Shown here: piece by piece, positions 9,911 through 59,973 of the stretch
Layout: each line of letters opens with the position of its first letter
How positions within the stretch are numbered: the stretch's first letter is position 1
DNA from: an uncultured delta proteobacterium
Lineage (GTDB): Bacteria > Desulfobacterota > Binatia > UBA9968
Reading direction: 5' to 3'
Length of the DNA: 64,000 bases
NCBI GenBank assembly: GCA_963804165.1
Contig: CAWDPO010000012.1
Coordinates: 18,604-82,603 of the forward strand
Notes under the pieces: model-generated
The model's database searches: none
Seen by the model: only the letters and a program-made list of their open reading frames with translations
Told to the model about the DNA's origin: nothing
Translations under genes and position numbers: made by a program

Positions 9911-10065
9911 AATTTCTTTACAGGATTCTTTTAGATCCTGCTACCTGCTAAATTCCGATGGTAGACCTCGCTTTTCCGTGTCCGATGGGTTTTGTGCTAG
10001 GTTGTTTGTCGAACAAGAAGTTATTTTTCCACGGTCAGCATTGACGTAATGCAAAGGAGGTTTTC

Positions 10066-29989: not shown

Positions 29990-30067
29990 CTAGGATTGAA
30001 CTGTATTCTCCTTCAAAGCACAGTCCTACGTGAGAAAAAACTGACGCGTCGTTCAGTTCAATCCTAG
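29990..30067 (+). repeat. GATTGAAC hairpin site A (complete)
   Basis: CTAGGATTGAACTG-TATTCTCCTTCA-N26-TGACGCGTCGTT-CAGTTCAATCCTAG. Confidence 0.9.
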
Positions 30068-33270: not shown

Positions 33271-33325
33271 TAGGATCGAACTGTATTCTCCTTCTAACGG
33301 CAGGTCTTCGATAACTGCATGAAGC
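33271..33325 (+). repeat. GATTGAAC site B (left arm; right arm eroded)
   Basis: TAGGATCGAACTGTATTCTCCTTC-N25-TGAAGC. Confidence 0.8.
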
Positions 33326-38094: not shown

Positions 38095-38145
38095 GGACAG
38101 CGCAGTATCGGAAACCGCGCATCGCTGTCACCCTGGTTATCCGGG

Positions 38146-38165
38146 TATTGGACTAAGGTCCAATA
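38146..38165. repeat. REP-like palindrome TATTGGAC-TAAG-GTCCAATA
   Basis: About 50 bp upstream of the RAYT start; identical copy at 53313-53332. Confidence 0.8.
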
Positions 38166-38411
38166 TAAAGCTTCTTTTTGTTCCAATAGATTTGTCCGTA
38201 AAGAAGATCCTTGTGGATTAATCAGGCCGACCAGTAATTGTCGCTGCCTAACGGCGGCTCACTTAATAGGTAGCTCTCAGAAATCGTAAAAAACGCATAC
38301 GCCAAACAAAGGAGACCAAGAACCTGTACCCGCCCCTGTTGTTACTGACATCTTCAAAATGGGCGCTGGCGTTTCAAACCGGTTGGAGTCATAAATTCTA
38401 GAGCGCTGCTC

Positions 38412-39371
38412 ATGGCTTCGACCAAGGCAATTAACCCCGGTGGAGGGGTCGAAATGGAAGCGAAGAAAACAGTTCATATCACTTGGGAGGACGCCCATCG
38501 GGCAGAGACGGAGCGAGACAAGGCGAGACAGACATGCTGCCGATCCATACCGCCAAATCGATTGAAACTTACCACCGTTTACGATTCTAGAGACCTCCGT
38601 AGACTAAAAGCTTCGGCGTTGCGTCTCTGGGACGTGACGTTTAACCACAGGGTTGGGGCATCGGGCTATAAGGGGAAAACCCTTTTTAGTCCTGCAGGGG
38701 TCGAGAGAATCACAGAGTGTTCAAAAGGGTTACCCCGGCTCGTCAACGCAATTTGCGACAACGCGGCGTCGACGGAAACAAACGTGGCAGGGACAAATTC
38801 TCAACCGTTGGAGAACCGACATAAAGCCGAGGCGGAGGAAGCCCAACGAACGCAATTCGGAGAGGATGAGCTTCGAGAGATTTGTTTTAAGCGTGGCTTG
38901 ACGAAATCGGCAGTCGGGATATTCCTGGGGGTCATTTTACTGGCCGGTGTCGGGACGGTGTCCTATTCGCAACAGAGCAAAAGCTATTTGTCCCATCTAG
39001 CTGTGAAGTGGGGAGCTATCGCTCAGCGCGCCGTACGCCATACTTCTGACCTAGAGGTGATGGTTGAGAGCTCGAAGGCGCAACCCGTCGAGCCGCGACT
39101 CTCTTCAACAAATCAGGAACCTGTTCAACCTGACGATCGAGAAAGCACGGCGACAAGACCGCGGGACTATTTGGGTAACTTTGAAGTCGTCGACGATTCC
39201 TTCGTTCGCGATAACCCTCAACCGAATGCCACCGTCATCGCGACTCTCCCGCCCGGTACGCAGGTTAGGGTAGAAAGCAAAACAGGAGAGTATTTCCGTA
39301 TCCGCTCATTGCACGATCCGGAGGTTATCGGTTATGTGCATAAAGAAGACGCCTTCTTTCAACCGCATTAA
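38412..39371 (+). CDS. degenerate ExeA-like fragment, TM segment and C-terminal SH3-like domain
   Basis: FSPAGVERITECSKGLPRLVNAICDNA (ExeA/GspA C-terminal motif, no Walker A); VRDNP...A.VIATL..GT.V.V....G.Y..I...GYV; N-terminus doubtful. Confidence 0.55.
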   Translation: MASTKAINPGGGVEMEAKKTVHITWEDAHRAETERDKARQTCCRSIPPNRLKLTTVYDSRDLRRLKASALRLWDVTFNHRVGASGYKGKTLFSPAGVERITECSKGLPRLVNAICDNAASTETNVAGTNSQPLENRHKAEAEEAQRTQFGEDELREICFKRGLTKSAVGIFLGVILLAGVGTVSYSQQSKSYLSHLAVKWGAIAQRAVRHTSDLEVMVESSKAQPVEPRLSSTNQEPVQPDDRESTATRPRDYLGNFEVVDDSFVRDNPQPNATVIATLPPGTQVRVESKTGEYFRIRSLHDPEVIGYVHKEDAFFQPH

Positions 39372-39443
39372 ATGAGGATACATTTCCGTCGAGTTGACGG
39401 TTAAAAGGGAGAAATGTTTTTGTTGGTTAATTTTGCGCTTATT

Positions 39444-39515
39444 GAGATTGAACTGAATTCTCCTTCTGCTTAATCCCCCGCCAGATTTCATTGACGCGTC
39501 GATCAGTTCAATCTC
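39444..39515 (+). repeat. GATTGAAC hairpin site C (complete)
   Basis: TGAGATTGAACTGA-ATTCTCCTTC...TGACGCGTCGA-TCAGTTCAATCTCA, 14-bp perfect arms. Confidence 0.9.
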
Positions 39516-40000
39516 AGGCTGAATCTGGTCGAATGCCTTCCATCGTAAATCTGACCTTTCTCCACCTGTGCTCTACGATCCGGGTGACCCAGCAAAGATA
39601 GCCGAGTTTAAGGAGACACAGGCCGCAGCTCAAGGGTTACTTTGGGAGTCCAGCGGTCAGTGCCGTGAGCGCGCAGAGCGCAAACCCACGATGTGATAGT
39701 CTTGATGAAATTCACCAAGCATGGCAGTACCTCCTTTCCAAAAATTGCCAACGCCTGACGAATATCTGTTGTCTAAATGCTCCGAGTCTATCCGTAATCA
39801 TGGCTTTCTAGTTGGTCAAGACCTGAAAGCCTAGAAGTGGCAACATGTTGAACGTTGCCGGTCTCCATGAAACCTTCCGACATACCGTATCCGCAAGCTC
39901 GCCACATTTGACAGTTTAATATAGGCGGGGTTATACCTGCGCCATTCACCGCAACAGAGACTCGCCGCGACTTTACGTGAGATTAGCCAAGGAGAGCCAA

Positions 40001-40518
40001 ATGCCTTACGCCGAATCTTTGAGAGCAATCGGTCAGTCCCTGGAAATGGTGCATATTGAGAGCTTTAGGCTGGAAAAAGAAGGCGATTCTTATGTAGTGC
40101 GGAGCGAGTCTCTAACACCGGCCCGGCTATGGATCTTGAGCAATAGTCTCGCCGAGGACGTTAGGGACTCTCCACCCCTGACCCGAAAACCACCCAGCTC
40201 ACTGTGGGTGAGGGATGGTTCTGTTACCGTCCTCCTGATATTGCAAGGCTTGACGCCCAGGAACGGAGAAAAAGACAAAATCACGGTGTCACACAAATGC
40301 CTCAGAAGACGCTAGCTCAGCTTTTACGTACTCTAGGTGAGTACCTGGATACAAAGGAGGCGACCACTTTTCACATCTCGTGTGCTCCTGATTCGATGTC
40401 GGTTGATTATCAAATGCCGGCCGGCATCTCTGAGCGCAAAGATTTTACCGTCGAGCGACTCCACAAACTCGCTTTGTACTCGAGATTCCGGCGGGTGCAG
40501 CCAACCGATTCTCACTGA
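40001..40518 (+). pseudogene. frameshifted copy of the hypothetical gene at 52569-53087
   Basis: Near-identical DNA; C4 at 40175-40178 versus C5 at 52743-52747 (may be a sequencing indel). Confidence 0.85.
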
Positions 40519-40590
40519 AGAAATTTGTGTCCGCGAAGAAACTCAAACTTAGCGCGTAATCGATCGCGGTAAGCGTGCGGCCTAACGCTG

Positions 40591-40612
40591 AAATCGAACT
40601 GAATTTTCCATC
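40591..40612 (+). repeat. GATTGAAC site D (left arm only)
   Basis: AAATCGAACTGAATTTTCCATC. Confidence 0.75.
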
Positions 40613-40826
40613 AAACCAATTGTCCTTGCTTTCACGCAACTCTGTGACTGCTGGCGCCGCTCTTTGTTTCCCACTTTGAACTTACGTGGAGGGAAAAACC
40701 ATTGTGCATCGATCATTGCGACCAGTAACTGGCGACCGGTTTGATTCCGAAAGGCAGCAACTGGCTCATCGTGAGTCTTGCTCCGCAATTTTCCAAGTCG
40801 ACACTACGCTGACGCAAATTTCGGAA

Positions 40827-41456
40827 CTATTTCTTAGGATGAAGCTGTTCTCCAGGCTTCTGGTCGACTTCCGTCTCATCCCAGGCGGTTTTTCCCTCCA
40901 AACTTTCCACGTTGAACTGGTAGTCGTAGACTAGCGAACCGCCATAAATAGCTCCATAGGAAACAAGCAGGCCGGCAACGATGGACAAGATCATTGTGAA
41001 AAGCCGCGCATATCCATCACTGAATTGGAGGAGACGAATAATAATGTTGATGATCACGATTACAGTGACAGTGAGCATCACCGTCATATGCCAGTTTGCA
41101 GTGCGCCACACCTGTGTGTGTTTCGCCGTGCCAAGAATGCCGGTCGAGTGATCCCTGTCCATGCCCTTCCACCAATCCCAGAAGCCGGTGAGGGCCGTCC
41201 CTACGGAAACGATTGCACCCGCGACGATGATGTAGGTGGCGGCGACAAAGAAATTACGGGCTGCGCTGGGGTACTCTACTGGCTCGTCATAAGCTTTATA
41301 ATACGAGATGATGTCGAACAATGCTGTGAGAACATAACAGACGATAGGAAAATCAGTGAGAGGCGGGTGCAGGGGCTTACCTGCCCAACCGCGCAATCCC
41401 CTGGACTCCCGCCCTTTAAGGGTCATTGACGGCTTAATTGAAAAAAGCCTGGTCAT
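40827..41456 (-). CDS. DUF2231-type membrane protein
   Basis: GKPLHPPLTDFPI, ALTG..DW, H, G..YGGSLVYDY; GGAG RBS before ATG 41456. Confidence 0.85.
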   Translation of the reverse strand: MTRLFSIKPSMTLKGRESRGLRGWAGKPLHPPLTDFPIVCYVLTALFDIISYYKAYDEPVEYPSAARNFFVAATYIIVAGAIVSVGTALTGFWDWWKGMDRDHSTGILGTAKHTQVWRTANWHMTVMLTVTVIVIINIIIRLLQFSDGYARLFTMILSIVAGLLVSYGAIYGGSLVYDYQFNVESLEGKTAWDETEVDQKPGEQLHPKK

Positions 41457-41516
41457 GTGTTTCTCCCCGGGCCACCGGATCATCCGGCCGGACGCCCGGA
41501 TGAACCCACAACTCGA

Positions 41517-43085
41517 TTAGGTGTCGCTTCCCATCACGCGGGTTAGCAACGCATCGGGAACCCTGGTGAGATTTGCGGCTGCATCCTTTAAGTCGCGATG
41601 CTCGACAGCGCGCGATAGCAACTCGTTTTTAGTCGGGCCTTGCTTTTTGCCGAGGAACGGCTTGGCGATCAGGTGAAAGACATCACGTAGTGGCATGTAA
41701 CGCATGAAGCGGAAAAGCAGCCGGAAGGTCTGGATCGGATAGTGGGTCAGCTTGTACAAAAAAAGTCGCCTCAACCCAGAATTTCGCTCAGCATTGATTA
41801 GCGGACCGGGTAGACAGGTCGGATCAATCTCTGAGCACTTGAAGTACTTGTACCAATCAGCTGCATCGTTGACCAGACCCCGCGCCACGTACTCTTTCCA
41901 CAGAGGAGTTCCCCGGTACACACACAGCCGGTTGAAACCGAACGTGTCCAGCCGCAGCTTCGCTGCGAAGTCAAACGTGGCACGTATATCGTGAACCGTC
42001 TCGTCCGGAGATCCAACAACAAAGAAGCCGTGCACGATGTCGATACCAGCCTGCTTAGCGGTATCCACCGCATTCTTAGTCTGCTCTAGGGTTTGCTCCT
42101 TCTTCAGCCGGTCGAGGACTTTCTGGCTACCGCTCTCAACTCCAAACATCACAGTGCGGCAGTGGGCCTTGGCCATTGCCGGGAACAGGTGTTGCGCCGT
42201 CGAATCAACCCGTCCCTCACAGCCCCATTGGATAGTGACCCCGCTCTCATTAATACCTTTGCAGATCGCCTCAATACGCTTAGGTTGCAAGAGGAAGTGG
42301 TCATCGACAAAGTAAACGGCACCGTATCCCAAGGCCTGTAGCTGTTTTAATTCGCCAACAACATGCTGCGGGGTGCGGGCGCGCCACTTGCCCTCGTTAA
42401 ATATAGGAATATCGCAAAAAACACAGGGCCAAGGACAACCGCGCGATGTCTGCATCGTCGTGAAGCGCTCCATAGATAAGACGGCCGGCACATCGAGCGG
42501 CATCGATTCAATGTAATCCAACGGCAAGCTCTCGCGGTCAGGAAAGGGCCACTGGTCGAGATCTCGGTCCAACACCCGATTTGGGTTGCTGACAGGGCGG
42601 CCATCCTGGGTCCATGTGAGACCTGCCACATCGGCAGGATCTTCCAAGCGTTCGACAAGATCGAGAATGAGTTGCTCACCATCCCCTCGACAAACGAAGT
42701 CCACTTCGGGGCACTGGAGCTTGACGAGTTCGGCGTTCAGTGTGGCGAAAACACCACCGAAGGCAAGCGGCACACGGGAGTCAGCCGCCCGTATCTGACG
42801 CGCAAGGAGCTTGGCATACGGATAACTCGTCGTGCTTAAAAAACTTAAGCCAACGAGGTCGGGTTTTTGCCTGCGGATTTCTTCGATAATGACATCATTG
42901 GGCGTCTCAGGATTGGCTTGATCGAACATGATGCTATCGTGGCCTTCGCGTTTGAGCACAGCCGAGAGCGACATGATACCAATCGGTGGAAACCCCATAA
43001 CGCGAATCCTGCCGTTCTTGGCGCGAGTTGCTGCAGGCAACGCGTAAAACTGAGGGTCGCGAATATGAATCAAAACGATTCGCAT
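41517..43085 (-). CDS. B12-binding radical SAM protein
   Basis: PPIGIMSLSA.L, GGVFAT, VDFVCRGDGE, TSRGCPWPCVFC (CxxxCxxC), GVESGSQKVL. Confidence 0.94.
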   Translation of the reverse strand: MRIVLIHIRDPQFYALPAATRAKNGRIRVMGFPPIGIMSLSAVLKREGHDSIMFDQANPETPNDVIIEEIRRQKPDLVGLSFLSTTSYPYAKLLARQIRAADSRVPLAFGGVFATLNAELVKLQCPEVDFVCRGDGEQLILDLVERLEDPADVAGLTWTQDGRPVSNPNRVLDRDLDQWPFPDRESLPLDYIESMPLDVPAVLSMERFTTMQTSRGCPWPCVFCDIPIFNEGKWRARTPQHVVGELKQLQALGYGAVYFVDDHFLLQPKRIEAICKGINESGVTIQWGCEGRVDSTAQHLFPAMAKAHCRTVMFGVESGSQKVLDRLKKEQTLEQTKNAVDTAKQAGIDIVHGFFVVGSPDETVHDIRATFDFAAKLRLDTFGFNRLCVYRGTPLWKEYVARGLVNDAADWYKYFKCSEIDPTCLPGPLINAERNSGLRRLFLYKLTHYPIQTFRLLFRFMRYMPLRDVFHLIAKPFLGKKQGPTKNELLSRAVEHRDLKDAAANLTRVPDALLTRVMGSDT

Positions 43086-43280
43086 ATCGTATACACTCTT
43101 TCATTGTGATCGCCTCCGCGCAAGACCGACCAAGGGCGCATCTCTCGGGCATTGTGGCCAAGCAGCGGGAATCTTTTTACAACCCCTTCGACGCCATCAT
43201 AGTCGGCTACAGATAGACCGGTTTTGGTTTTGAGGGTTTCGGTCGGTCATGATAGTCGGAGTCAAAGGGAGAATTTGAAT

Positions 43281-43304
43281 TGAAGCGTCGTTCAGTTCAA
43301 TCCT
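43281..43304 (+). repeat. GATTGAAC site E (right arm only)
   Basis: TGAAGCGTCGTTCAGTTCAATCCT. Confidence 0.85.
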
Positions 43305-43402
43305 ACGCTGAAATTAGCCTTTTCTCGCTCGATGAATCTGGTTCTCTCTACTGCCGTAAATTGCACTTTTCATCGCTTGGCTCCGCGTGGTATGTAGCGG
43401 CC

Positions 43403-44386
43403 ATGAAAAAAGCGGGCTGGGCGTCGGCGTTGGTTGCCGTGATACTGCTTGCTGTTGCAGTTATAGCCGAGGCGCAGCAGGCGAAGGTCCACCGCATAGG
43501 AGTTCTCACGCCACGCTCTCCGTCGGATAGCGCGCCCTGGCATCGGGCATTTCGAGAAGGTCTCCAGGGCCTCGGATGGGTAGACGGAAAGAACATCGCG
43601 ATCGAATACCGATACGCCCAAGGCAATCGCGACCGCCTCCCTGACCTCGCAGCCGAGATCCTCCATCTGAAGGTTGAAGTCGTTGTTGTCGTGAGTGTCC
43701 ACGCGGCCCGTGCTATTCAGCAGATCAACAAGGCAATCCCTATCGTAATGGCGTCCGCCGCTGATCCTGTCCAGTTGGGCTTGGTTGCCAGTCTTGCTCG
43801 GCCTGGCACCAACATCACGGGCTTATCGGAAATTACCCCAGAGATGGCCGGAAAGCGGCTGGAGCTGCTCAAGGAAATGGTCCCCAAGCTTTCCCGTGTG
43901 GCCACGCTTTGGGATCCAGGAAACGACGCCTCGGCGCTCAGTTGGAAAGAGGTCCAGTCCCCTGCTCGGCAGCTCGGTCTGTATCTGCATTCGCTGGAGG
44001 CACGGAGCCCCAAGGATTTTGACAAAGCGTTCGAAGACGCTACCAGGGCACGCGCTGGCGCCATTGCCGTCATGCCGGCTCAGTTGTTCGGCGCGAATTT
44101 AAAACGGATCGCGGATCTTGCGGCAAAGAGCCGCTTGCCGTCAATATGGCATCTCTCGGAATTTGTGGACTCAGGCGGTCTCGCTGCATATGGGCCAGAC
44201 CGTGCCGACCAGTTCCGTCGCGCGGCGATCTACGTGGACAAGATATTGAAAGGCGCCAAGCCCGGGGACCTACCAGTGGAGCAGCCGAAGAAGTTCGAGT
44301 TCATCGTCAACCTGAAAACGGCAAAACAGATCGGCTTAACTATTCCGTCCAATGTATTGGCTAGAGCCGACAAAGTTATCCGATGA
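43403..44386 (+). CDS. orphan ABC transporter substrate-binding protein (ABC_sub_bind type)
   Basis: Signal peptide AEA-QQ, GKNIAIEYR, IPIVM...DPV..GLVASLARPG.NITG, GAKPGDLPVEQP.KFE..VNLKTAK.IGLTIP..VLARADKVI. Confidence 0.93.
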   Translation: MKKAGWASALVAVILLAVAVIAEAQQAKVHRIGVLTPRSPSDSAPWHRAFREGLQGLGWVDGKNIAIEYRYAQGNRDRLPDLAAEILHLKVEVVVVVSVHAARAIQQINKAIPIVMASAADPVQLGLVASLARPGTNITGLSEITPEMAGKRLELLKEMVPKLSRVATLWDPGNDASALSWKEVQSPARQLGLYLHSLEARSPKDFDKAFEDATRARAGAIAVMPAQLFGANLKRIADLAAKSRLPSIWHLSEFVDSGGLAAYGPDRADQFRRAAIYVDKILKGAKPGDLPVEQPKKFEFIVNLKTAKQIGLTIPSNVLARADKVIR

Positions 44387-44391
44387 CCGAA

Positions 44392-44477
44392 CAATCGAAA
44401 ATCCAAAATCGAAAATCTAAAATGGTAGGGCGATTCCGCCGAATGTGCTGGCGAGGGCGGATAGAGTGATCAAATAA
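44392..44477 (+). pseudogene. collapsed relic of another substrate-binding-protein paralog
   Basis: AAAATC-core heptamers followed by IPPNVLARADRVIK* (44433-44477). Confidence 0.75.
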
Positions 44478-44493
44478 CGACGCGGCAATCGCA

Positions 44494-44547
44494 GGATTGG
44501 ATTGAATTCTCCTTCAACGCAATCTCGCTGAAACACATTGACGTTCG
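44494..44547 (+). repeat. GATTGAAC site F (left arm; right arm eroded)
   Basis: GGATTGGATTGAATTCTCCTTCA-N22-TGACGTTCG. Confidence 0.8.
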
Positions 44548-44583
44548 CATGTGTCCTAAGTGTATTCGCGGTATGTGCGCGTA

Positions 44584-44970
44584 TTAATGTTTGTCATCGT
44601 CGCGGATAGGCAAGTGGCGCAGTAACACGGTCTGGAGTTGATTAACAGAAACGGGTTTGAAGATGACTGCACGGGCGCCGCATCTCAAGGCGCCCTCGCA
44701 ATGTTGCTCGGCCATCCAGGCAGTACAAATGATGATTGGAGTATTCCTAGTTACCGAGCTCTCTCGCAGACAGGTTGTTGCCTCAATACCGCCCATACTC
44801 GGCATATTGAGGTCCATTAGAATTAGATCGGGTCTTTCTCTCAAAGCCTTTTGCACGCCGGTTTCGCCGTCGTCTGCCTGGAGAACCTGAAAGCCCAAAT
44901 GACGAATAATCATGGCGAAGAGTTCGCGGCAGTCTGTATTATCGTCGATCAATAAGACTTTGTAGGCCAT
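44584..44970 (-). CDS. single-domain response regulator (receiver)
   Basis: KVLLIDD, PDLILMDLNMP..GG, ICTA, FKP. Confidence 0.9.
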   Translation of the reverse strand: MAYKVLLIDDNTDCRELFAMIIRHLGFQVLQADDGETGVQKALRERPDLILMDLNMPSMGGIEATTCLRESSVTRNTPIIICTAWMAEQHCEGALRCGARAVIFKPVSVNQLQTVLLRHLPIRDDDKH

Positions 44971-45118
44971 AAACCCGTCCTTCAAAGCAGACTATGTGCC
45001 AAGACAAAAATCCTATTTGACCATCGTTTCTTTCTTCAACTAAGCTTAAAATCGCGGGTTGACGGCCAGCGTTGCCAAATTTGGCAGTGCGTAATGACAA
45101 GGCGATGGGCCTTATAGA

Positions 45119-45383
<265 letters not shown>

Positions 45384-45577
45384 ATCCATTTCTTTGCGAA
45401 TAGAAGACCGTCCATTTCCGCTTCTTCTCGTAGACGAAACGTGCGATTAACAGTTAACTTACTAGTTATCCCTCTACCATCTTCGCTCCAAATTATAGTA
45501 AGGCATAGCTTCCACTGACGCGGGGCCCGTCGCGAGGATGACACGAGAATCCTGTGACCTTTGTGAGTTTCGTTCAT
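45384..45577 (-). CDS. small hypothetical protein, 3' end lost in the homopolymer tract
   Basis: AGGAG RBS; MNETHKGHRI...EEAEMDGLLFAKKWI. Confidence 0.6.
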
Positions 45578-45618
45578 GAATTTTTCTCCTAGACGTAGCG
45601 AGTGAATTCCTACCACCT

Positions 45619-46011
45619 CTAGGCGGCCAGCAAATGGGTCCGCAGGACATCCCGTAGCTGCGGCAACTGAAACGGCTTGTACAAAATCTCTGCGGCACCA
45701 GCATTGAGTGCACGGTCTAGGCGCGCTTCAACATTGCATTCAGTAGTCCAGCCGCTATTTAGAACCACAGGTATATTGCGGGTGGACATATTCCTCTTTA
45801 ATTGGACTGTAACTTCATCTCCATTTAGTCCAGGTAAACGTATGTCCATCATGATCAGATTAGGATGGATGCTGAAAGCCTTATCGAGAGCCTCTGGACC
45901 CGTGGCCGCTTCAAAAACTTCATGGCCCAAACCACGGAAAAACGCGCGAAGCGACTCGCGAAACTTTTCGTTGCCATCCACGATCAATATCTTCTTAGGT
46001 GTTTTACGCAT
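45619..46011 (-). CDS. single-domain response regulator (receiver)
   Basis: KILIVD, PNLIMMDIRLPGLNG, IPVV..SG, LYKPF. Confidence 0.88.
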   Translation of the reverse strand: MRKTPKKILIVDGNEKFRESLRAFFRGLGHEVFEAATGPEALDKAFSIHPNLIMMDIRLPGLNGDEVTVQLKRNMSTRNIPVVLNSGWTTECNVEARLDRALNAGAAEILYKPFQLPQLRDVLRTHLLAA

Positions 46012-46276
46012 GGAAGAAGGTAGCAGCACAAGGCATGCCAGCGCCCGCAAACGTCAGTATTTTGGTATTTTATCGCCGTTAGTGCATATGCAGAGATATT
46101 TGGCGCTGCAACACGCTCAGAGAATGACTGCACTTTGTCACGAGGCGATCAGTCCAAAGCTGGGACGAAGTACACTCGGGCAGAAGCTAAGAATTGTGGG
46201 TAATGATCAGCAGTCCTGAGCGAGATAAGTCGACGCGGCTTCCAACAAGAGATCGGATTGAACTCTGCGTCACCGC

Positions 46277-47770
46277 TCAATCGCCGGTGAGATACGCGTC
46301 CCGATGCCCCTCTTGGCGCGCCAACGACTGGCGAACTGCATCCGCCTCTTCTCGCGCGGTGAAATGTCCGACCCGCACTCGATAATAAGTTTGTCCCTTG
46401 ACTTCGGTCTGGACCACGTAACCATCGTAACCGTTGGCCTTTAATTTCTGCACCAAAGTATCGGCAACATCTTTCGCGGGCGCCGCGGAAATCTGCACCG
46501 ACCACTTTTTGCTCAAGTTCGCGCTATCTGTAGAGTGCGCCATCGGAATTATGGCCGCCCGATCCACGGTGCTCTTCGTGGCAAACCGCACCGCGGTATT
46601 CCGAGCGGAGCCATGAACGTTCGGCTTTGCTCGTGTTGCCTCGGCACTTTGATTCGCAAGTCCGCCAACGGTGTCGATAGAAGACACATTCTGCGGCCTT
46701 AAACTGATCTCAGTCTGATCCGAGGTGGGATTCGCGCCATTGGCTCGCTTTTGAATATCATAATCGGCGGGCATGCCAAGATAAAAGATAACCACCGCGC
46801 TCGCGACAAAGATCGCTGCGAACGTCGCGCCCTGCGTCCGATTCAACGAGAAGCGCCGGCGAACGTTCTGGCGCTTTCCACGCTCGTGTAGGGGCAATTC
46901 CTGATGATCGGGGTAAGTTTTTAACTTCTCAGCGCCCATGCCAACCCCGCTCACCATTGAACTATTTGATAGCGACAAGGTTTCGGTCAACGCCGCTTCG
47001 GTTTGTAGCACGGGGTGGAATTTTGCGACTAGCTCATCCGCCTTGCGCTTGCGTATTTCGGCCTCGCAAGGTTCAAAAGTAAAACCCGTCGGCTGTAAGT
47101 GCTGAGATTGAAAATCGGTTTCGCTTTCGTGGCGTAGCAAGGCCTTCTGGATATTTGCCGACTCGCCGATAAAGACTTGGCAACCGAAGTAGAAGAGCCC
47201 ATATACGCCGGATGTTGGCGGCGCGAAGAGTAGGATTGTCTCCCTAGTGAAACTGTTGCAACGACCGTCTGGAAGCCAAGACAAGCTCCAGCGCACCGCC
47301 TCTTTGTCAATATTAGCGGTTGACTTCAAGACAGAGGAGCGATTGGGGTCATCTGAAATCTTCGCCCTCTCGGACGAGGACCCACTGGGATAGGCATGAT
47401 TTCGAAGCTTTCGATCACCATTGTTCGTAATTGATTTCGGCTCGTATTTCGGGAAATCGACAGAAACCTCGGCTGTAGCGCTATTGGCTCGTCGTTCGCG
47501 CTCGAGGAGCAGTGTGCGGGCTTCATCGATAGACTGACACGGCAGCAAAGCGTCGCGGATGTAGTGAACGGAATCATCAAATCGTCCTATTGTCGGTGAA
47601 AATATGCACTTGAGCTTGTGAATATAGTCGCTGTAACCTCCAGCCCTCATTGGATTGTATTCCCAAATAGTTTGCCATGGGACGAAGCCACCTAAACATA
47701 GACGTACGAGTTCGACGGAAGGCGCCGGCATGCCAGCGACTAAGACAAGCAGCTTGCTCACCGCTGGCAA
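46277..47770 (-). CDS. membrane-anchored SPOR-domain protein with an upstream GIY-YIG-like segment
   Basis: C-terminal WSVQISA....A..L..KLKANGYDGYV....G.TYYRVRVG.F..REEA; TM FAAIFVASAVVIFYL; SGVYGLF...FIGES.NI; true start uncertain. Confidence 0.75.
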   Translation of the reverse strand: MPAVSKLLVLVAGMPAPSVELVRLCLGGFVPWQTIWEYNPMRAGGYSDYIHKLKCIFSPTIGRFDDSVHYIRDALLPCQSIDEARTLLLERERRANSATAEVSVDFPKYEPKSITNNGDRKLRNHAYPSGSSSERAKISDDPNRSSVLKSTANIDKEAVRWSLSWLPDGRCNSFTRETILLFAPPTSGVYGLFYFGCQVFIGESANIQKALLRHESETDFQSQHLQPTGFTFEPCEAEIRKRKADELVAKFHPVLQTEAALTETLSLSNSSMVSGVGMGAEKLKTYPDHQELPLHERGKRQNVRRRFSLNRTQGATFAAIFVASAVVIFYLGMPADYDIQKRANGANPTSDQTEISLRPQNVSSIDTVGGLANQSAEATRAKPNVHGSARNTAVRFATKSTVDRAAIIPMAHSTDSANLSKKWSVQISAAPAKDVADTLVQKLKANGYDGYVVQTEVKGQTYYRVRVGHFTAREEADAVRQSLARQEGHRDAYLTGD

Positions 47771-48386
47771 ATTTTATCTGACAGAAGGGTTGGCGTTCTA
47801 TGAAATGACGAAGGACTCGTAGGACGGGACCAATTCTTGTTTCCGTTCCGATGATCATTTTCACTCGTCCAGTTTGGTTCAGCGTATCAAGTTAGTGGAG
47901 CAACTTTCGTTGGATCCTTACCACTAAAAACCCCTGTTAGATTTTGGTGCGGCTGTCACTGAACATCCCCGAGCAATGCTTATGCCTTGAACGGCTTCCT
48001 TTGACAGGACTGGATAAAAGCACACAAGAGCATCAATACAGGGCAAGACCGACAGCTGTCCCGCGATAAGAAGACGGATTAGTGTAAAATCGTGCGAAAA
48101 TGTGCTCCCGTTAATCTCGGCTTTTGGGCCCTGTCATTGATCACTCGCCACTGAAGAAGGACGCAGGTATCGCGGAAGTCGCAAATTTGCCTGAGCCTCA
48201 TCAGATATGGGCCGCTCGTCCTCAAAGTAAGCAGCCAATCCAGAAAGCTTCTCGGAACGATGTATCACATGATGAAGGAAACTCGTTTTCCGCCACGTAG
48301 CGAAACCACAGCCCCGTTTCTACCAATCGCCATTTTGGCATTCTGATTGCTCCGTGGGTCAACAACAAGTTTAAAAGGAGGATGAA

Positions 48387-48914
48387 GTGATGTTCTTCGG
48401 CCTTAAACGATCGTGGAAGCTGCTATTCGTTGGACTCTTTCTTCCGTCAATCACGGGGTGCAGCACGACGCGTTTGGAAAGTCCCGCCGTCCCCACGGCG
48501 GTCGAACCCAAGATTCTCGAGGAGCCGATTGCCTTGGGTTCATCAGTTAACGCGCGTGTTACGAAAGTCCGATTTTTCGAAGGCGAACGTTCTAAACTAG
48601 CATTTATTTCGGATAGGACATATGAAACCCGGTTTGCAAAGACGCTCACTAGAACCGTTTACACAGAAATTAACCTTGACTATCCCCGGCCCGAAACCAA
48701 TGTCTATTTTCCTATTACCCTGTATTTTCGCCAGAACGGAAGAACGCTGCGCATCGAGGAAGTCCAGAGTTGGATTCGATCAGAGTGGACTTCGTCTGAT
48801 CACTTGGTAAGCGCTGGAAATTTCGACCCGGGAAAATGGACTGTTGGCAATTATGAGGTAGACGTTTACATCAACGCTAAAAAGGCAGCCACGGGTTATT
48901 TTGCAATCTATTAA
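48387..48914 (+). CDS. hypothetical lipoprotein
   Basis: AGGAGG RBS, lipobox ITGC, beta-rich tail GKW.VG.Y.VDVYIN. Confidence 0.75.
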   Translation: MMFFGLKRSWKLLFVGLFLPSITGCSTTRLESPAVPTAVEPKILEEPIALGSSVNARVTKVRFFEGERSKLAFISDRTYETRFAKTLTRTVYTEINLDYPRPETNVYFPITLYFRQNGRTLRIEEVQSWIRSEWTSSDHLVSAGNFDPGKWTVGNYEVDVYINAKKAATGYFAIY

Positions 48915-49133
48915 TCACTTGAATGAGCCGGGGAGGCTGTGGGTCTAGTTTAACTATTCCTTACCAATCGTCAAAATTGATTTATCGATTGGCCGCTAAA
49001 GAGCTATTGAATCAGCCTCACGGAATTCTGTGGATCGTGTCCGTGACGCCACCGCTAGTCTATCGCATTGCCCCTGGAACGGCCTGTCGCCTTTCCTCCG
49101 TAGTTAATGGACTTGTTGGCATCGGTCAGTGTA

Positions 49134-49718
49134 TTACAACGTCGGTGCCGCAGCGGTAATAACAAAGCGGTCCCGGCGATTCTTCTCCCAGCACGATTCC
49201 GTGTGTTCCGTGCATACGGGAATTTCCTCGCCGTAACTTACCGTGGACAATCGTTGAGCGGAAATTTCTAGTGACACTAGATAGTCCCTGGCCGCCTGTG
49301 CTCGCTTCGCGCCCAATCCCGCATTGTACTCGTTGGTACCGCGCTCATCGCAGTGTCCCTCGATCTCCACTCGGACCGACGGATGTTCCTTAAGCCACTT
49401 CGCATTCGCTTCGAGAGCGTCGCGCGCATCCGCCCGTAGCTCGTATCGGTCAAATTCAAAATGAATGTCTTTAAGGGGACTCGATGCCGGTGTCGCCGTG
49501 CTTTCTCCTTTTTGCAGAGCTTCGAGGCTAGAAGAAATGGGAACTCGCGACACGATTCGGGATGACCCTGCTGATGCGCCTGTAGACGCAAGTGGATTTT
49601 CGACCGTCCAATTCGGCTCTGTTGTGTATTTTGGAGTCCTAATTTCAGGTGCGCAACCGATCAGTACCAAAGCCAGAAGGCTCCCATAAGGCAGCAAGCT
49701 ACGATATTGCTGAAACAT
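49134..49718 (-). CDS. pal: peptidoglycan-associated lipoprotein (Pal/OmpA family)
   Basis: Lipobox LIGC; IHFEFDRY, IEGHCDERGTNEYN..LG.KRA, VSYGEE.P, NRR; no tol genes adjacent. Confidence 0.88.
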   Translation of the reverse strand: MFQQYRSLLPYGSLLALVLIGCAPEIRTPKYTTEPNWTVENPLASTGASAGSSRIVSRVPISSSLEALQKGESTATPASSPLKDIHFEFDRYELRADARDALEANAKWLKEHPSVRVEIEGHCDERGTNEYNAGLGAKRAQAARDYLVSLEISAQRLSTVSYGEEIPVCTEHTESCWEKNRRDRFVITAAAPTL

Positions 49719-49830
49719 CGATTTTTCCTTTCATAGCCGGGGTGATTAGGAAGAATTCTGAGCAACACCCAAGCGGCTTCATAAGACGTGGTCGAGGGAG
49801 TCGGATAACAATCCCGGCGACGTTTCCCGA

Positions 49831-50727
49831 TTACTGTGTGCCTAAGATGGAAACTTGCTTTAACTCGAATTCTCCGCCTTTATTGATAACAGCGAAACCA
49901 TCAAAGGGATCGTCGTGAGCACGGTCAACAGTCCGCATGACTTCCTTGTTATCGAACAGCACGACCATTTCACCGTCATTGTTGCGGCGCCACTCAAGCG
50001 TGTGTGGCACTCCGTCGTCCACTAATATTCCCTGGTCGACCATTTCGATGACCGCCGAACGGTTTGGCCCGAAACGCAACAACGATAAAGACGGAGTCCT
50101 TCCAGACTCAAATGCGAGCCGATATCCTGAGTTGCCGTCTTCGCCTTGGAACGGACCGAATTCCAGCCGCGACTTGCGGTCTACGTAATTCTTTATGTTC
50201 AGCTGAAGCTTGAGCGCAAACGCTTTGGTAATCCCGACCCGGGTAAATATCTCAGCTTCGGGTTTCGAGCGGCTTTGTGTATCGCCGACTGCCCGTTCTC
50301 TGGCGCCCAGCAACTCACCCAATAACCCCAATGCCGGGCCGTCGCTCCTGCGGTCGGATGTGCGGTACATTCCCGACGTAGATGGATCGAAATAAGATCT
50401 GAGCCCCGCTCCTCTTACGACCCGAAACTCACCATGTTTTACCAGCCATCGAGGATCATAATTATAATCTCCATCACGAAAATCATCGTAGAGAAGCGAA
50501 ACTTTCCACGGCCAATCGTAACGGCGCACCAGATCGCGGAGCTGCTTAGTTAGCGCGGGATTTGACCGCCCATCCTGCTCCGCTCCGCGGATCAATTCCT
50601 TCAACTGATCCACCAATTCCTGAGTCTGCCCACCCCCAACCGGGCCCGGATCCGTCTGGGCCTGGACGAAAAAAACCGGAGCTACCGTCAAAAAAATCGC
50701 AAGAGCGATGATACGGCGCATATTCAT
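49831..50727 (-). CDS. hypothetical secreted protein
   Basis: Signal peptide ending VQA; DDFRDGDY..DPRW; beta-sandwich-like C-terminus. Confidence 0.7.
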   Translation of the reverse strand: MNMRRIIALAIFLTVAPVFFVQAQTDPGPVGGGQTQELVDQLKELIRGAEQDGRSNPALTKQLRDLVRRYDWPWKVSLLYDDFRDGDYNYDPRWLVKHGEFRVVRGAGLRSYFDPSTSGMYRTSDRRSDGPALGLLGELLGARERAVGDTQSRSKPEAEIFTRVGITKAFALKLQLNIKNYVDRKSRLEFGPFQGEDGNSGYRLAFESGRTPSLSLLRFGPNRSAVIEMVDQGILVDDGVPHTLEWRRNNDGEMVVLFDNKEVMRTVDRAHDDPFDGFAVINKGGEFELKQVSILGTQ

Positions 50728-51015
50728 ACTCCCTTTCTCACTCGATCCTTCTAAAACCAAGCAAGGTGCATACCGCGAGCTAATTCATTCATGCCTAAGG
50801 AAACCTTGGATAATGTCTGGATTTCAGAGGACCAACTCTAACCAGGAATGAGCGAAAATGTACTATGCGATAAAGCCATGTTTTACTGAGCCTGCTGAAG
50901 GTAGTTGGAACTGTTAAAGGAAAAGTTCATCCCGCCAATTTTCGTTTCAGTCATCGCAACACAGGTAGCTACCAAAGAGCGAGCACATGTTGGAGCCATT
51001 GCATGAGATTGTATA

Positions 51016-51038
51016 GAGGCGTCGTTCAGTTCAATCCT
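51016..51038 (+). repeat. GATTGAAC site G (right arm only)
   Basis: GAGGCGTCGTTCAGTTCAATCCT. Confidence 0.85.
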
Positions 51039-51147
51039 GCGCCGAAATTTAGCCCTTTCCCTATCAACAAATCCGGTTTCCCGTCCGCCGTAAATAATCG
51101 TTTCCGCAATTACCGTGCGCGTGATAGCGTCCGCAACGAGGTGAGGA

Positions 51148-52152
51148 ATGAAGAAAGTTGGTTGGTCATCAATCTTGGTTGCAACGCTAGTGCTTGTTTT
51201 TGGAGTCGCTGCCAACGCGCAGCAGCCGACGAAAATCCTGCGCGTGGGGATTCTCTTCATCGGCGGGCGCGATCAACCCCACCTTGAAGCATTCAAGCAA
51301 GGCCTTCGAGAGCGTGGATACACGGAAGGCAAAAACATCGTCCTGGATTACCGATATGCGGAGGGCAAGTTAGATCGCCTTCCTTCGCTTGCGGCTGAAT
51401 TGGTTCAGCTGAAAGTGGACGTCATTGTCACTACGTCAGGAAATAGCGCCAAGGCGGCTTCAGAAGCCACAAAGACGATACCGATTGTGCTAACAACGGG
51501 AGCAGATCCGGTGAAATCAGGTCTGGCTGAGAGCTTGGCGAAACCCGGGGGCAATGTTACGGGACTCAGTATTATCGAGGAAGATTTAAGCGGTAAACGG
51601 GTGGACATTCTGAAAGAGACTTTTCCGAAAATGACACGCATGGCGTATCTTTGGCACCCCCTTGCCGTATCTTATCCCGCGGCGGATACGACGAGCGGAA
51701 ATCCATCTTATGACCAGGTAGAAAAAGCGACGAAAACTGCTGGCGTACAGCTTCTTTCGTACAAGGTTCGGACTTTGGCCGAAATCGAGAGGGCGTTTGC
51801 CGATATGCCAAAGGTTCGGCCGGACGTCCTACTAGTATTACAAAGTCCGCTGATGACTCTTAACTCAAAAAAGATCGTTGAGCTGGCGCTTAAGCAGCGC
51901 CTCCCGGGCATGTACCCAACGCTCCAATTCGCCGAGGAAGGTGGATTGATGGCTTACGGTCCTCTGATTGGCGACCTCTATCGCCGCGCCGCGACTTACG
52001 TGGACAAAATCTTAAAAGGTGCCAAGCCCGCCGATCTGCCGGTGGAACAGCCGATGAAGTTTGAACTGGTGATTAATCTCAAGACGGCGAAAAAGATCGG
52101 TCTTACGATTCCGCAGAGAGTGCTGGGGCGAGCGGATAAGGTGATCAAGTAG
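51148..52152 (+). CDS. orphan ABC transporter substrate-binding protein (ABC_sub_bind type)
   Basis: Same family motifs as 43403-44386, clearly diverged paralog. Confidence 0.93.
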   Translation: MKKVGWSSILVATLVLVFGVAANAQQPTKILRVGILFIGGRDQPHLEAFKQGLRERGYTEGKNIVLDYRYAEGKLDRLPSLAAELVQLKVDVIVTTSGNSAKAASEATKTIPIVLTTGADPVKSGLAESLAKPGGNVTGLSIIEEDLSGKRVDILKETFPKMTRMAYLWHPLAVSYPAADTTSGNPSYDQVEKATKTAGVQLLSYKVRTLAEIERAFADMPKVRPDVLLVLQSPLMTLNSKKIVELALKQRLPGMYPTLQFAEEGGLMAYGPLIGDLYRRAATYVDKILKGAKPADLPVEQPMKFELVINLKTAKKIGLTIPQRVLGRADKVIK

Positions 52153-52175
52153 TCGAAGAAAACGAAGTGACGAGG

Positions 52176-52251
52176 CTAGGATCGAATTGAATTCTCCGTC
52201 AAACCGATCTGCGGCAGCATCGAATTGAAGCGTCGTTCAGTTCAATCTTAG
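52176..52251 (+). repeat. GATTGAAC hairpin site H (complete)
   Basis: CTAGGATCGAATTGAATTCTCCGTCA...TGAAGCGTCGTTCAGTTCAATCTTAG. Confidence 0.9.
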
Positions 52252-52568
52252 GCTGAATCTAGTCGAATGCTTTCCATCGTAAATCTGACTTTCTCTACCT
52301 GTGCTCTACGATCCGGGTGATCCGGCAAAGATAGCGGAGTTCAACGAGGCACAGGTCGCAGCTTGGTAATCATGGCTTTCTAGTTGGTCAAGATCTGAAG
52401 GCCTAGAAGTGGCAACATGTTGAACGTTGCCGGTCTCCGTGAAACCTTCCGACATACCGTATCCGCAAGCTCGCCACATTTGACAGCTTAATATAGGCGG
52501 GGTTATACCTGCGCCATTCACCGCAACAGAGACTCGCCGCGACTTTTACGTGAGCCAAGGAGATCCAA

Positions 52569-53087
52569 ATGCCTTACGCCGACTCTTTGAGAGCAATCGG
52601 TCAGTCCCTGGAAATGGTGCATGTTGAGAGCTTTAGGCTGGAAAAAGAAGGCGATTCTTATGTAGTGCGGAGCGAGTCTCTAACACCGGCCCGGCTATGG
52701 ATCTTGAGCAATAGTCTCGCCGAGGACGTTAGGGACTCTCCACCCCCTGACCCGAAAACCACCCAGCTCACTGTGGGTGAGGGATGGTTCTGTTACCGTC
52801 CTCCTGATATTGCAAGGCTTGACGCCCAGGAACGGAGAAAAAGACAAAATCACGGTGTCACACAAATGCCTCAGAAGACGCTAGCTCAGCTTTTACGTAC
52901 TCTAGGTGAGTACCTGGATACAAAGGAGGCGACCACTTTTCACATCTCGTGTGCTCCTGATTCGATGTCGGTTGATTATCAAATGCCGGCCGGCATCTCT
53001 GAGCGCAAAGATTTTACCGTCGAGCGACTCCACAAACTCGCTTTGTACTCGAGATTCCGGCGGGTGCAGCCAACCGATTCTCACTGA
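52569..53087 (+). CDS. hypothetical protein with an internal repeat (LRAIGQSLE / LRTLGEYLD)
   Basis: AAGGAG RBS; intact version of 40001-40518; paralog at 60677-61126. Confidence 0.8.
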   Translation: MPYADSLRAIGQSLEMVHVESFRLEKEGDSYVVRSESLTPARLWILSNSLAEDVRDSPPPDPKTTQLTVGEGWFCYRPPDIARLDAQERRKRQNHGVTQMPQKTLAQLLRTLGEYLDTKEATTFHISCAPDSMSVDYQMPAGISERKDFTVERLHKLALYSRFRRVQPTDSH

Positions 53088-53160
53088 AGAAATTTGTGTC
53101 CGCGAAGAAACTCAAACTTAGCGCGTAATCGGTCGCGTGTAAGCGTGCGGCCTAACGCTG

Positions 53161-53229
53161 AAATCGAACTGAATTCTCCTACAACCAAATCCTGTGAGAT
53201 TTGACCGTCGCGTCGTTCAGTTCAATCCT
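53161..53229 (+). repeat. GATTGAAC hairpin site I (complete)
   Basis: AAATCGAACTGAATTCTCCTAC...GTCGCGTCGTTCAGTTCAATCCT. Confidence 0.88.
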
Positions 53230-53563
53230 GATAACCTTGTCTCCGTTCCACCAACCGTCTCCATGGCATCATTTTGACCCAAAATTTCCATTCGGGCCCC
53301 TGCTCATCCGCGTATTGGACTAAGGTCCAATAGAATAACTTTCAGTTCGTGATTAGGAATCTAGGAAGCAAGAAGGAGGGCACTTATGAAACCAATAAAA
53401 CAATTCACATTGTTGATCGCGCTGCTCGCCGCCAGCTTGGCGCTGCCGGCATTCGCACAAACACCCAAGTCTCTCTGCCCTCTGAGTAGTGATCCGGCGA
53501 GCAAACTCTTGCTGGCAACCTTTGTCTGTCCACAATCTGAGTAGCCATAAGAAAGGAACTGTA

Positions 53564-54891: not shown

Positions 54892-55051
54892 AACTGTCTG
54901 TTGTACTTTGTGTTGTGGACCTGGGTAGCCACTCCAGCCTCGCTCTAGCACAGGACAAATGCAGGTTGAGCGGTGAGGAATAAGACGGTTGCCCCAGTCC
55001 TGAGGACGTCCCACGCGGAACAATGGCATGCAGGCGACGGCGTTAGCCTTC

Positions 55052-55074
55052 AGATTGAATTGAATTCTCCATCA
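55052..55074 (+). repeat. GATTGAAC site J (left arm only)
   Basis: AGATTGAATTGAATTCTCCATCA. Confidence 0.8.
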
Positions 55075-55543
55075 ATCCATTCACAACGTTACTCTTCATG
55101 CCCTCCGCTCTGCTCAGTACCTGTTGCGCCATAGGCGGAAACGGAACCAAATATCGGCCGCCCGCCGTGGGCTCCGAGTCATTGTCCGCCGAAGTTTAAT
55201 TGAGCCCATTCGAACCAGATGGAAGCATAACGTTGGCCAGAATAAATTTCCGACAGCATAACCTTGCCTAGCGTACTGCTTAAATACGATTTCGGACTCG
55301 ACGGGGTCCTTACACATTTGATCAGTTCCGTAAGACGAAATGATTTCGAACAGTTCTAAAGTTTGGTGCGAAGTGCCAAGATTATGGATAAAGTTATATT
55401 CCGTTAAACTTGAACCATAGTTTTGCCTAAATGGCGGTATTGGTGCTTCAAACGTTTCTACTCGCTCTCGTTTAAAAACGTCTTCTGTCTATGCTTCCCC
55501 GCACGATCACGTGATACAGAACTCCGGAAGCCAACCAAACGCC

Positions 55544-59645: not shown

Positions 59646-59726
59646 CGGACAAATACAAGTCGCTGCCTAACATGGCCGTAGAGCCGATGCGCCGGAGCCT
59701 GCGGTCATGGCCAGTGTTAAGTTTAT

Positions 59727-59794
59727 AATTGAATTGAATTCTCCTTCTGCTTAATCCCGTCAGATTTCATTGAAGCGTCGTACAGTTCCATCCT
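59727..59794 (+). repeat. GATTGAAC hairpin site K (complete)
   Basis: AATTGAATTGAATTCTCCTTC-TGCTTAATCCCGTCAGATTTCAT-TGAAGCGTCGTACAGTTCCATCCT; loop nearly the same as site C. Confidence 0.88.
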
Positions 59795-59973
59795 GTCTGT
59801 GCAGGTAGATTGGCAACCATTGATCAGTGGAGTGTGGTTGATTTGAAGGGTCGTGTTTGCCACGCTATTGAGAGGCTGGTTAAATTTTCTACGTCATAAT
59901 TCTCAGTAACTTTAATACACTGGTCCGGTGTCCCCGCCGATTTTTTCCAGCGAAATGTGAAAGGAGAACAACC

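Follow-up and report, generated by a model that had tools for sequence, protein, structure and literature searches.

Two direct copies of a module of about 1 kb, bounded by attC-like recombination sites, lie in a 64,000-nt stretch of DNA from an uncultured delta proteobacterium of the Binatia lineage (assembly GCA_963804165.1, contig CAWDPO010000012.1, positions 18,604 to 82,603 of the forward strand; hereafter the window, in a genome designated G000). On balance, we consider it probable that this module is a gene cassette residing in an integrase-less array, of the type termed CALIN (attC-site clusters in which integron-integrases are lacking), with non-canonical attC-like sites, and that the enzyme serving these sites is the integron integrase of related genomes, acting in trans. 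The duplication itself is ordinary for integron arrays. The unusual parts of the system are the design of its sites, the use of both site halves as breakpoints and an IS91-type element (IS, insertion sequence) aimed at the crossover point.

Anatomy and distribution of the sites

Each site is an attC-like double site of ~75 nt (70-80 nt), formed by two palindromic simple sites of 12-6-12 layout, S1 and S2, that lie back to back. S1 consists of an outer (L) arm, GATTGAACTGAA, the spacer TTCTCC and a weaker inverted arm, and S2 of a weaker arm, the spacer GCGTCG and an outer (R) arm, TTCAGTTCAATC. The inner arms follow the consensus TTCAACTCAATC on the S1 side and, after 6-8 variable bases, GATTTGACTGAA on the S2 side. 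An alignment of 29 non-redundant complete sites revealed the spacer TTCTCC in 27/29 and GCGTCG in 25/29, with outer arms matching the 12-nt motif at 10.8 and 11.5 of 12 positions and inner arms matching its inverse at 8.0 and 7.5 of 12 (maximum in 500 shuffled references, 6.7). All four arms are instances of one 12-nt motif in alternating orientation. In the window, the arm motifs returned 7 and 9 matches, all on the + strand, against 0.26 and 0.13 expected from shuffles; two exact R-arm matches were also detected on viral contigs.

This arrangement is compatible with a putative single-strand fold in which a 12-bp outer stem leads through an unpaired 6x6 bubble to an inner stem capped by a small loop. 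RNAalifold returned no consensus structure from the 29 sites, and pairs were subsequently counted on a hand-written structure. Pairing was observed in 91% of the cells of the outer stem and 61% of those of the inner stem, and seven inner pairs vary on both sides, with a covariation score reached by 0/500 shuffles. Single-sequence folds of the sites gave z values from -4.5 to -0.05, and comparison with Rfam was negative both for the window at gathering score and for 39300-53400 at E<=1.

attC sites are imperfect palindromes of ~55-140 nt with R''/R' and L''/L' boxes, in which extrahelical bases set strand choice; each attC was reportedly described by Stokes in 1997 as containing two simple sites. 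The sites analysed here present both the length and the box arrangement (two simple sites in an imperfect palindrome). The core consensus at the attC crossover is GTTRRRY, with RYYYAAC as its inverse. With a slash marking the junction between S2 spacer and R arm, the sites read G/TTCAGT, a 6/7 match to the former, and the inverse side reads ACTGAAT, a 5/7 match to the latter, so that GTT is kept and AAC is not found at the equivalent place.

The window contains the following sites:

29990..30067, + strand: site A, with which the array opens here, a complete double site (profile match; fold z -4.5)
33271..33297, + strand: site B, S1 only (profile match)
39443..39517, + strand: site C, complete double site (nhmmer model positions 3-77, E 5e-18)
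40587..40622, + strand: site D, S1 only, with no R arm (AATCGAACTGAA-TTTTCC-ATCAAACCAATT; nhmmer model positions 1-36)
43275..43306, + strand: site E, S2 only (nhmmer model positions 46-77)
44493..44543, + strand: site F, with S1, loop and inner arm, the R arm degraded (profile match, sequence)
50996..51040, + strand: S2-only site ahead of the substrate-binding-protein cassette that ends at site H (profile match, sequence)
52175..52251, + strand: site H, complete double site (nhmmer model positions 1-77, E 8e-18)
53157..53230, + strand: site I, complete double site (nhmmer model positions 1-76; near-identical to C20:6887-6961)
55052..55079, + strand: site J, S1 only (profile match)
59725..59795, + strand: site K, complete but degraded, with the loop of site C (profile match, loop comparison)

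In site C, S1 comprises the arm plus TTCTCC at 39446-39463 and is followed by the loop and by S2, with GCGTCG at 39496-39501 and the arm at 39502-39513; its fold has a 14-bp outer stem and a z of -3.5. Many 'L-only' and 'R-only' sites are S1 or S2 simple sites standing alone (e.g. C5:22609 and C5:21531), and some of these form perfect palindromes.

A genome-wide search at E<=0.05 with an nhmmer profile built from 34 complete sites identified 87 sites or half sites on 22 contigs of G000, clustered, with a single orientation per cluster and often at contig ends. The intervals from S2 to the next S1 (n=57, from G000 plus four arrays of its relative G018) have a median length of 1168 nt, and 83% of their open reading frame (ORF) content runs in the orientation of the sites (18,941 aa vs 3,890 aa), whereas ORF orientation is mixed in the other interval types. 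Recurrent cassette products include ABC-type substrate-binding proteins (PF04392), SnoaL-like proteins and others. PF04392 paralogues appear as cassettes at window positions 43280-44386 and 51148-52152, on contigs C5, C18 and C23, and in the G018 arrays, which sit between ordinary chromosomal genes. The array has clustered sites and no integrase nearby, and would be a CALIN if its sites formally qualify as attC.

Clustering and co-orientation also set these sites apart from repetitive extragenic palindromic (REP) sequences and REP doublets forming hairpins (REPINs), which are dispersed, occur in both orientations and go with a Y1 transposase. A REP reading with an associated tyrosine transposase (RAYT) was considered and rejected, as the hairpin associated with the Y1_Tnp gene of the window is a different one. 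This gene encodes an IS200-like Y1 transposase of 228 aa (37408-38094, - strand) and lies beside the hairpin TATTGGACTAAGGTCCAATA (38146-38165 and 53313-53332), which belongs to a family of 10 genome copies that is unrelated to the L/R sites. Elsewhere in the window, a DDE_5 transposase gene (464 aa, 30332-31726) is located just behind site A, in an interval that also holds an ATP-grasp gene. At 55954-56944 and 62153-63911, an NMT1-like gene and an AMP-binding/PP-binding gene are each split into adjacent frames; these may be frameshifts and possibly sequencing errors.

Copies of the module and their breakpoints

The copies were delineated through a repeat search over window positions 38000-55000, a BLAST search against the whole genome with 39380-40720 as query, and a three-way alignment. 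The repeat search identified collinear direct repeats with a spacing of ~12.57 kb, in agreement with an original prediction, made from the window alone, of near-identical copies at ~39500-40610 and ~52235-53180. Positions 39794-40620 and 52366-53190 are 97.5% identical over 830 aligned columns, with 13 mismatches and 4 gaps, and positions 39490-39630 and 52224-52363 are 90.1% identical over 141 columns. The same prediction called the module exactly duplicated, which proved too strong: the copies are ~2.5% divergent, with several small indels besides a large one. It was close in making the second copy ~165 bp shorter, the measured difference being 163 bases. A third copy was located at G000:C20:5958-6957, 97.4% identical to window positions 52224-53227.

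39496..40609, + strand: cassette copy A, starting at the S2 spacer of site C and ending at the S1 spacer of site D (three-copy alignment, BLAST)
52230..53215, + strand: cassette copy B, starting, by the integron convention, at the S2 spacer of H and ending at that of I
39631..39793, + strand: 163-nt segment present in copy A only, missing from copy B and from the C20 copy
40001..40518, + strand: copy A version of a 172-aa gene, its frame broken near 40175 (ORFs 39977-40315 and 40204-40518)
52569..53087, + strand: intact 172-aa gene of unassigned function (ORF in copy B)

In all three genomic copies the left edge falls within the S2 spacer plus outer R arm, and the inner arm preceding GCGTCG differs in all three. 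The start of similarity in the R arms of sites C and H was thus correctly anticipated: GCGTCG is found at 39496 and 52230, and the 12-13 nt before it differ. On the right, similarity decays right after the L arm plus spacer (40609 and 53179), as foreseen for sites D and I. Part of this apparent stop arises because site D is truncated or a single simple site, rather than a full one. Copy A diverges right after the S1 spacer, site D lacking S2, whereas copy B and the C20 copy are alike through the entire site I and diverge after TTCAATC; the R...L part of copy B as first defined stops at 53179, and the C20 copy matches through 53227. The sequence outside the arms differs as described, the outer loops being unlike. 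Mapping to the base, as had been proposed, places the edges in two 18-nt blocks conserved in nearly all sites, and this conservation limits finer placement.

The 34 complete sites retrieved by arm patterns were also compared through their loops and their 100-nt upstream and downstream flanks, with 168 site pairs having unrelated flanks as background (mean loop identity 0.63). Many similarities of 80-86% between upstream flanks arise because PF04392 paralogues have conserved 3' ends. Pairs alike upstream and not downstream share the whole loop: I/C20 (0.91 upstream, 0.93 loop), C21/C23 and C22/C23 (0.99 upstream, 1.00 loop; possibly a single locus, assembled twice, in the case of C21 and C22) and C14/C18 (0.83 upstream, 0.97 loop, with unlike downstream flanks). 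In these pairs the inner arm of the next R half also travels with the gene, and similarity ends only after the next R arm. Conversely, C/H share the downstream flank alone (0.90) and have unrelated loops (0.59). Because upstream-sharing pairs share the loop and C/H does not, the comparison points to the integron rule, in which a site belongs to its upstream gene and crossover occurs at the start of the right-hand arm. A unit reaching from a crossover in one R' to the next, as in integron cassettes, is seen in I/C20, C21/C23, C22/C23, C14/C18 and C/H.

The original prediction had further noted that sites C and K share a loop in spite of different flanks, and this was borne out, with a loop identity of 0.88 and 100-nt flanks at 0.55 and 0.55; loop identities of at least 0.85 occur in 3/168 of the background pairs. 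The same loop type is found at C8:26421 and C23:259520. A second duplicated module ends at site C:

38145..39466, + strand: second duplicated module, with a hairpin and an SH3-domain gene; its other copy is at C26:23816-25011

The two instances are 98.3% identical over the last 700 nt, and their similarity ends right after the TTCTCC of site C. The proposal of the R...L segment as the unit of movement is hence upheld in part: sites bound the modules, left edges fall in the R arm, copy A ends at the L-arm spacer and this independent duplicate ends after TTCTCC, but the segment is not the sole unit, as the whole downstream site travels in other pairs. The accompanying idea of crossovers at or just outside the conserved arms was likewise only partly right, with breakpoints at the S2 spacer/arm junction and, in some pairs, at S1.

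The same cassette start is found behind a full site or behind an arm plus TTCTCC alone, in C21 vs C23 (variant arm TTCAGG) and in loci L042-L044 vs L047. Because one cassette start has these two left contexts, the junction can be placed exactly between spacer and arm. For the remaining breakpoints, homologous exchange or slippage inside the 18-nt blocks could conceivably have produced the same edges.

Contigs from four runs, corresponding to four studies of soil or sediment metagenomes, were aligned to 39300-40800, with 39657-39758 and 40626 onward lacking cover. The module is present in 4/4 runs, with roughly 90-97% likeness. Three of the four join 39629 to 39791, the short form of copy B, and the fourth joins 39614 to 39794 via 17 other letters. 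The frame break of copy A near 40175 corresponds to one missing base in a C run, and one base more is present at 40174-40176 in copy B, the C20 copy and contigs of 4/4 runs; it may reflect a real pseudogene or a homopolymer sequencing error. Because the metagenome contigs have the short form and the additional base, the extra 163 nt and the frameshift of copy A would be derived states, or the frameshift an error. The further copies that the original prediction had proposed to look for were found in C20 and the metagenomes, the left edge of the C20 copy being the same and the downstream loops differing between copies.

The gene of the module was found in 41 loci (1 from the genome collection and 40 from metagenomes) and in several site contexts: directly behind a complete site, 30 nt behind one, or with no detected site. 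Its 172-aa product returned no Pfam family match and no usable atlas match. Among 219 candidate homologues, 184 reach E<=0.001; no Pfam domain was present on 120 listed homologues among those 184, one of which is named from a Candidatus Binatia metagenome-assembled genome. The structure model has a pLDDT (predicted local distance difference test) of 80.9, and a search against PDB returned no fold match at E<=0.001 (best E 8e-3, template modelling score 0.25). Just before the L arm (window 40569-40600 and 53139-53170) the cassette carries GCGGCCTAACGC, which resembles the start of the canonical GCCTAAC-type sites adjoining intI in the relative G014; L041-class loci are 9 nt shorter here.

Candidate recombinases

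Related genomes (41, including the unpublished G005) were scanned with TIGR02249. Matches above the cut-off were obtained in 9/41, the full-length ones scoring 445-471 bits, and IntI matches at E<=1e-40 in 16/41. No match above the cut-off was obtained in G000, which is 81% complete, nor does G000 present, beside the array, the intI gene with its additional domain and the attI that define a complete integron. A remnant is nonetheless present: G000:C34:24299-24415 corresponds to the last 39 codons of intI, 79% identical to the IntI of G014. Contig C34 and the intI upstream region of G012 are collinear, and the 9-bp repeat block of that region is fused directly to the 39 codons, from which we conclude that intI has been deleted in G000.

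At the deleted locus (G000:C34:24250-24415) the block has a 9-bp-period TTGAAC/TTGGAAC pattern. Arrays of about four 9-bp repeats (GTTCAAnnC or its inverse) adjoin intI and flank conserved genes in relatives (L027:9433-9487, 9922-9970 and 10246-10300; L028:7283-7336 and 8482-8602; L029:169-202, 513-555, 3884-3977 and 6135-6186). Their GTTCAA core is common to the site arms, and integrase binding is a possible role for them. At C34:25835-25894, 1.4 kb downstream of the intI remnant, lies a canonical attC-like palindrome of 60 nt that G012 and G018 have conserved.

The L-arm pattern is present in 17/24 genomes of the genus, 3/5 of family f2 and 0/11 of family f3, with 0 matches to a reversed control pattern. 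Sites and IntI share this clade pattern, the genus and f2 having both and neither being found in 11/11 f3 genomes; the genomes concerned are kin and not independent samples.

No recombinase gene was found regularly beside the arrays. Xer-like recombinases near G000 sites were rejected as the array enzyme, as an IS91-type transposase (Y2_Tnp plus Zn_Tnp_IS91) comes after every one of them and a single conserved end comes before. This IS91-linked family was not found in the site-rich genomes G018, G017, G024 and G003. The element it defines comprises the tyrosine recombinase gene and the Y2/Zn-finger transposase, with a conserved left end, GGACTAAACCGCTTCGCGG, and a right-end hairpin, and occurs at G000:C23:251689-254215 and 259580-262106, C18:37165-39700, C24:174617 and C30:154988-155067. 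Its insertions fall precisely on the junction between spacer and arm in S1 or S2 sites, and in the contigs from runs X1 and X3 its right end abuts the module at 39503/39504. Members of a sister family of 284 aa (C5, C9, C10, C37, C41) are located in non-site DNA after ...GTT. The recombinase gene in a G018 array (L031:3975-4876, G018:C11) was also discarded: it carries two frameshifts and has a close relative in only 1/40 other genomes. This Xer-like gene occupies the space from an S1-only to an S2-only site, and its intact relative (325 aa, 70% identical) is in G033; the remaining matches, at 38-44%, look like housekeeping Xer proteins.

Xer/dif-type sites have a 6-bp spacer between two 11-bp arms that match the XerC and XerD arms of the host; the sites described here share the general geometry (12-6-12). 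A candidate dif, TCTGATAA-GAGATA-TTATGTAAACT, was identified at G000:C15:118091-118118, about 15 kb from a 313-aa Xer-like gene. It is present in 23/41 related genomes, single-copy in 21/23, and its arm TTATGTAAACT matches the site arm at 6/11 positions. As a comparison of sequences, this does not favour XerCD as the array enzyme, without disqualifying it.

Taken as a cassette, the module would consist of the 172-aa gene plus a leader, and its site would fold as a single strand into the architecture of a folded attC. A tyrosine recombinase would cut out and re-insert such cassettes by strand exchange at the spacer/arm junction, chiefly GCGTCG/TTCAG, which would be the position of the integron G/TT crossover. 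Exchange of this kind would have put the copies behind sites C and H and on contig C20, and the likely enzyme would be the integron integrase carried by relatives within the genus. With intI deleted, the arrays of G000 are probably frozen and decaying, putative signs of decay being the half sites, the IS insertions in sites and the frameshifted copy A.

Alternative explanations, known systems and implications

The likeness to integrons and CALIN extends to several features: co-oriented imperfect palindromes of ~75 nt located 3' of mostly co-oriented, promoter-poor gene units; a predicted folded form with R box, unpaired spacer and L box, and a putative G/TT crossover at the start of the right-hand arm; cassette duplication; and several arrays per genome away from intI or without it, with an intI remnant elsewhere. 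According to Cury et al. (2016, PMC4889954), CALIN are abundant; half are located in genomes that lack intI and few occur close to intI remnants, a description in line with the present array.

Several observations weigh against the cassette-array interpretation or set these sites apart from known attC. The spacers are unpaired but almost invariant, whereas variable spacers are expected of attC, and attC spacers are poorly conserved according to the same study (Cury et al. 2016, PMC4889954). Unlike in attC, the arms are 12 bp long and the stem extends beyond the core, which reads GTTCAGT (6/7 of GTTRRRY); the inner arms are equal in length in most sites, and no conserved single-base extrahelical bulge is evident. 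Unlike in classical integrons, free-standing half sites are common, some breakpoints fall at the left-hand simple site S1 (A/B and C/C26, as exceptions), and many cassettes are multi-gene, up to about 4.4 kb. The same module occurs with at least four different downstream loops; other loops follow it in L041, L045, L046 and L048 and in the contigs from runs X1 and X2. Sites and enzyme are only weakly linked inside the genus, with IntI (E<=1e-40) in 11/17 genomes with sites vs 3/7 without, and G000 is only 81% complete, so that an intact integrase may lie in its missing part. Moreover, no L/R site was found near intI in 15 fetched stretches from nine relatives (G006, G008, G012, G014, G015, G017, G018, G021 and G023; G029 had one match, E 0.53). 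The intI-adjacent array of G014 has ordinary GCCTAAC...GTTAGGC sites. The pattern used for canonical attC is too strict for counting canonical sites in general.

Some of these features would be accounted for if S1 and S2 were independent double-stranded core sites, like dif or lox, with different spacers and served by XerCD or another tyrosine recombinase. S1xS1 and S2xS2 exchange would then swap either the gene module or the short loop, amounting to natural cassette exchange. The nearly invariant 6-bp spacers (27/29 and 25/29), the single motif behind all four arms, the free-standing and sometimes perfect simple sites (C5:22609, C5:21531), the breakpoints at S1 and S2 alike and the loops common to sites with unrelated flanks are all consistent with this explanation, as are the sites in genus genomes where no IntI was found (G003, G004, G020 and G022). 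The inner arms, however, covary as if pairing, no recombinase gene is regularly associated with the arrays, the sole one in a G018 array is frameshifted with a close relative in only 1/40 other genomes, and the candidate dif is single-copy in 21/23 genomes and resembles the arm at just 6/11 positions. We therefore judge two independent core sites unlikely, if the most credible of the alternatives. Somewhat less probable still is a stronger version, in which the sites would not be attC at all but a distinct two-crossover system for a non-integron tyrosine recombinase, swapping modules and loops separately. If true, such a system would be a natural counterpart of recombinase-mediated cassette exchange with heterospecific sites, spread through a Binatia-type soil genus.

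Duplication by homologous recombination, gene conversion or replication slippage between the 18-nt blocks, identity being longest in the arms, appears just as improbable as that stronger version. It would agree with breakpoints that can be placed only within conserved blocks and with a genome lacking an intact integrase, and the 'perfect' half sites could derive from full sites by slippage between direct-repeat arms. Yet 18 nt of identity is very short for RecA-type recombination, and the same cassette appears in different site contexts in unrelated samples; the 2.5% divergence and the indels, moreover, indicate an old event that could predate integrase loss.

The R...L segments are very unlikely to be non-autonomous transposons (mobile insertion cassettes) with terminal inverted repeats: each module does start with TTCAGTTCAATC and end with its inverse, and the genome contains DDE_5, IS110 and IS91-type transposase genes, but the junctions read show no target duplications, each cluster has one orientation, set by two different spacers, the outermost 6 nt of the two sides are not complementary, the downstream loop often moves with the module, IS91-type elements have different ends and no transposase with these ends was found. 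Least credible of all is an assembly artefact: the assembly is a draft of 46 contigs with many clusters at contig ends, and the source reads were not found (none of the public runs contains >0.21 of the sampled words of the stretch), but the copies differ by 13 mismatches, the 163-nt indel and small indels, both have unique flanks on the one contig, another contig carries a third, diverged copy, and independent metagenome contigs explain both the long and the short forms.

Returning to the cassette-array interpretation, other systems offer partial parallels. In the folded attP of phage CTX and of other Xer-dependent integrating elements, two dif-like half sites in inverted orientation pair with each other around a central bubble that stays unpaired, and exchange of one strand pair suffices without spacer homology. 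The sites described here resemble it as folded double sites with such a bubble, but form arrays of many sites with cargo genes, and their arms match the candidate dif of the genome at only 6/11 positions. The pdif modules of Acinetobacter plasmids are discrete gene modules with short Xer-type sites in varied contexts, their flanking sites being in opposite orientation and on plasmids; here, by contrast, the sites are co-oriented, chromosomal and paired into hairpin-capable doublets. The IS1111-attC group and group IIC-attC introns insert at a fixed position inside a recombination site. The same behaviour is seen here in an IS91-family element (Y2 transposase, Zn-binding domain) that, unlike those, has a tyrosine recombinase gene of its own.

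A literature search limited to the word pair 'integron' and 'Binatia' found no paper naming both. The analysis outlines a genus of uncultured soil bacteria with dozens of cassette sites per genome, which have an easily recognised two-part design and free-standing halves. If the integron integrase of the genus serves these sites, the known range of attC architecture would be widened, and the arrays would provide a view of how integrase-less arrays form and decay after the loss of intI; if another enzyme serves them, they would represent a separate gene-capture system. Either way, the sites constitute a precise marker for gene flow in soil metagenomes, where the cassette studied here was present in 4/4 runs.

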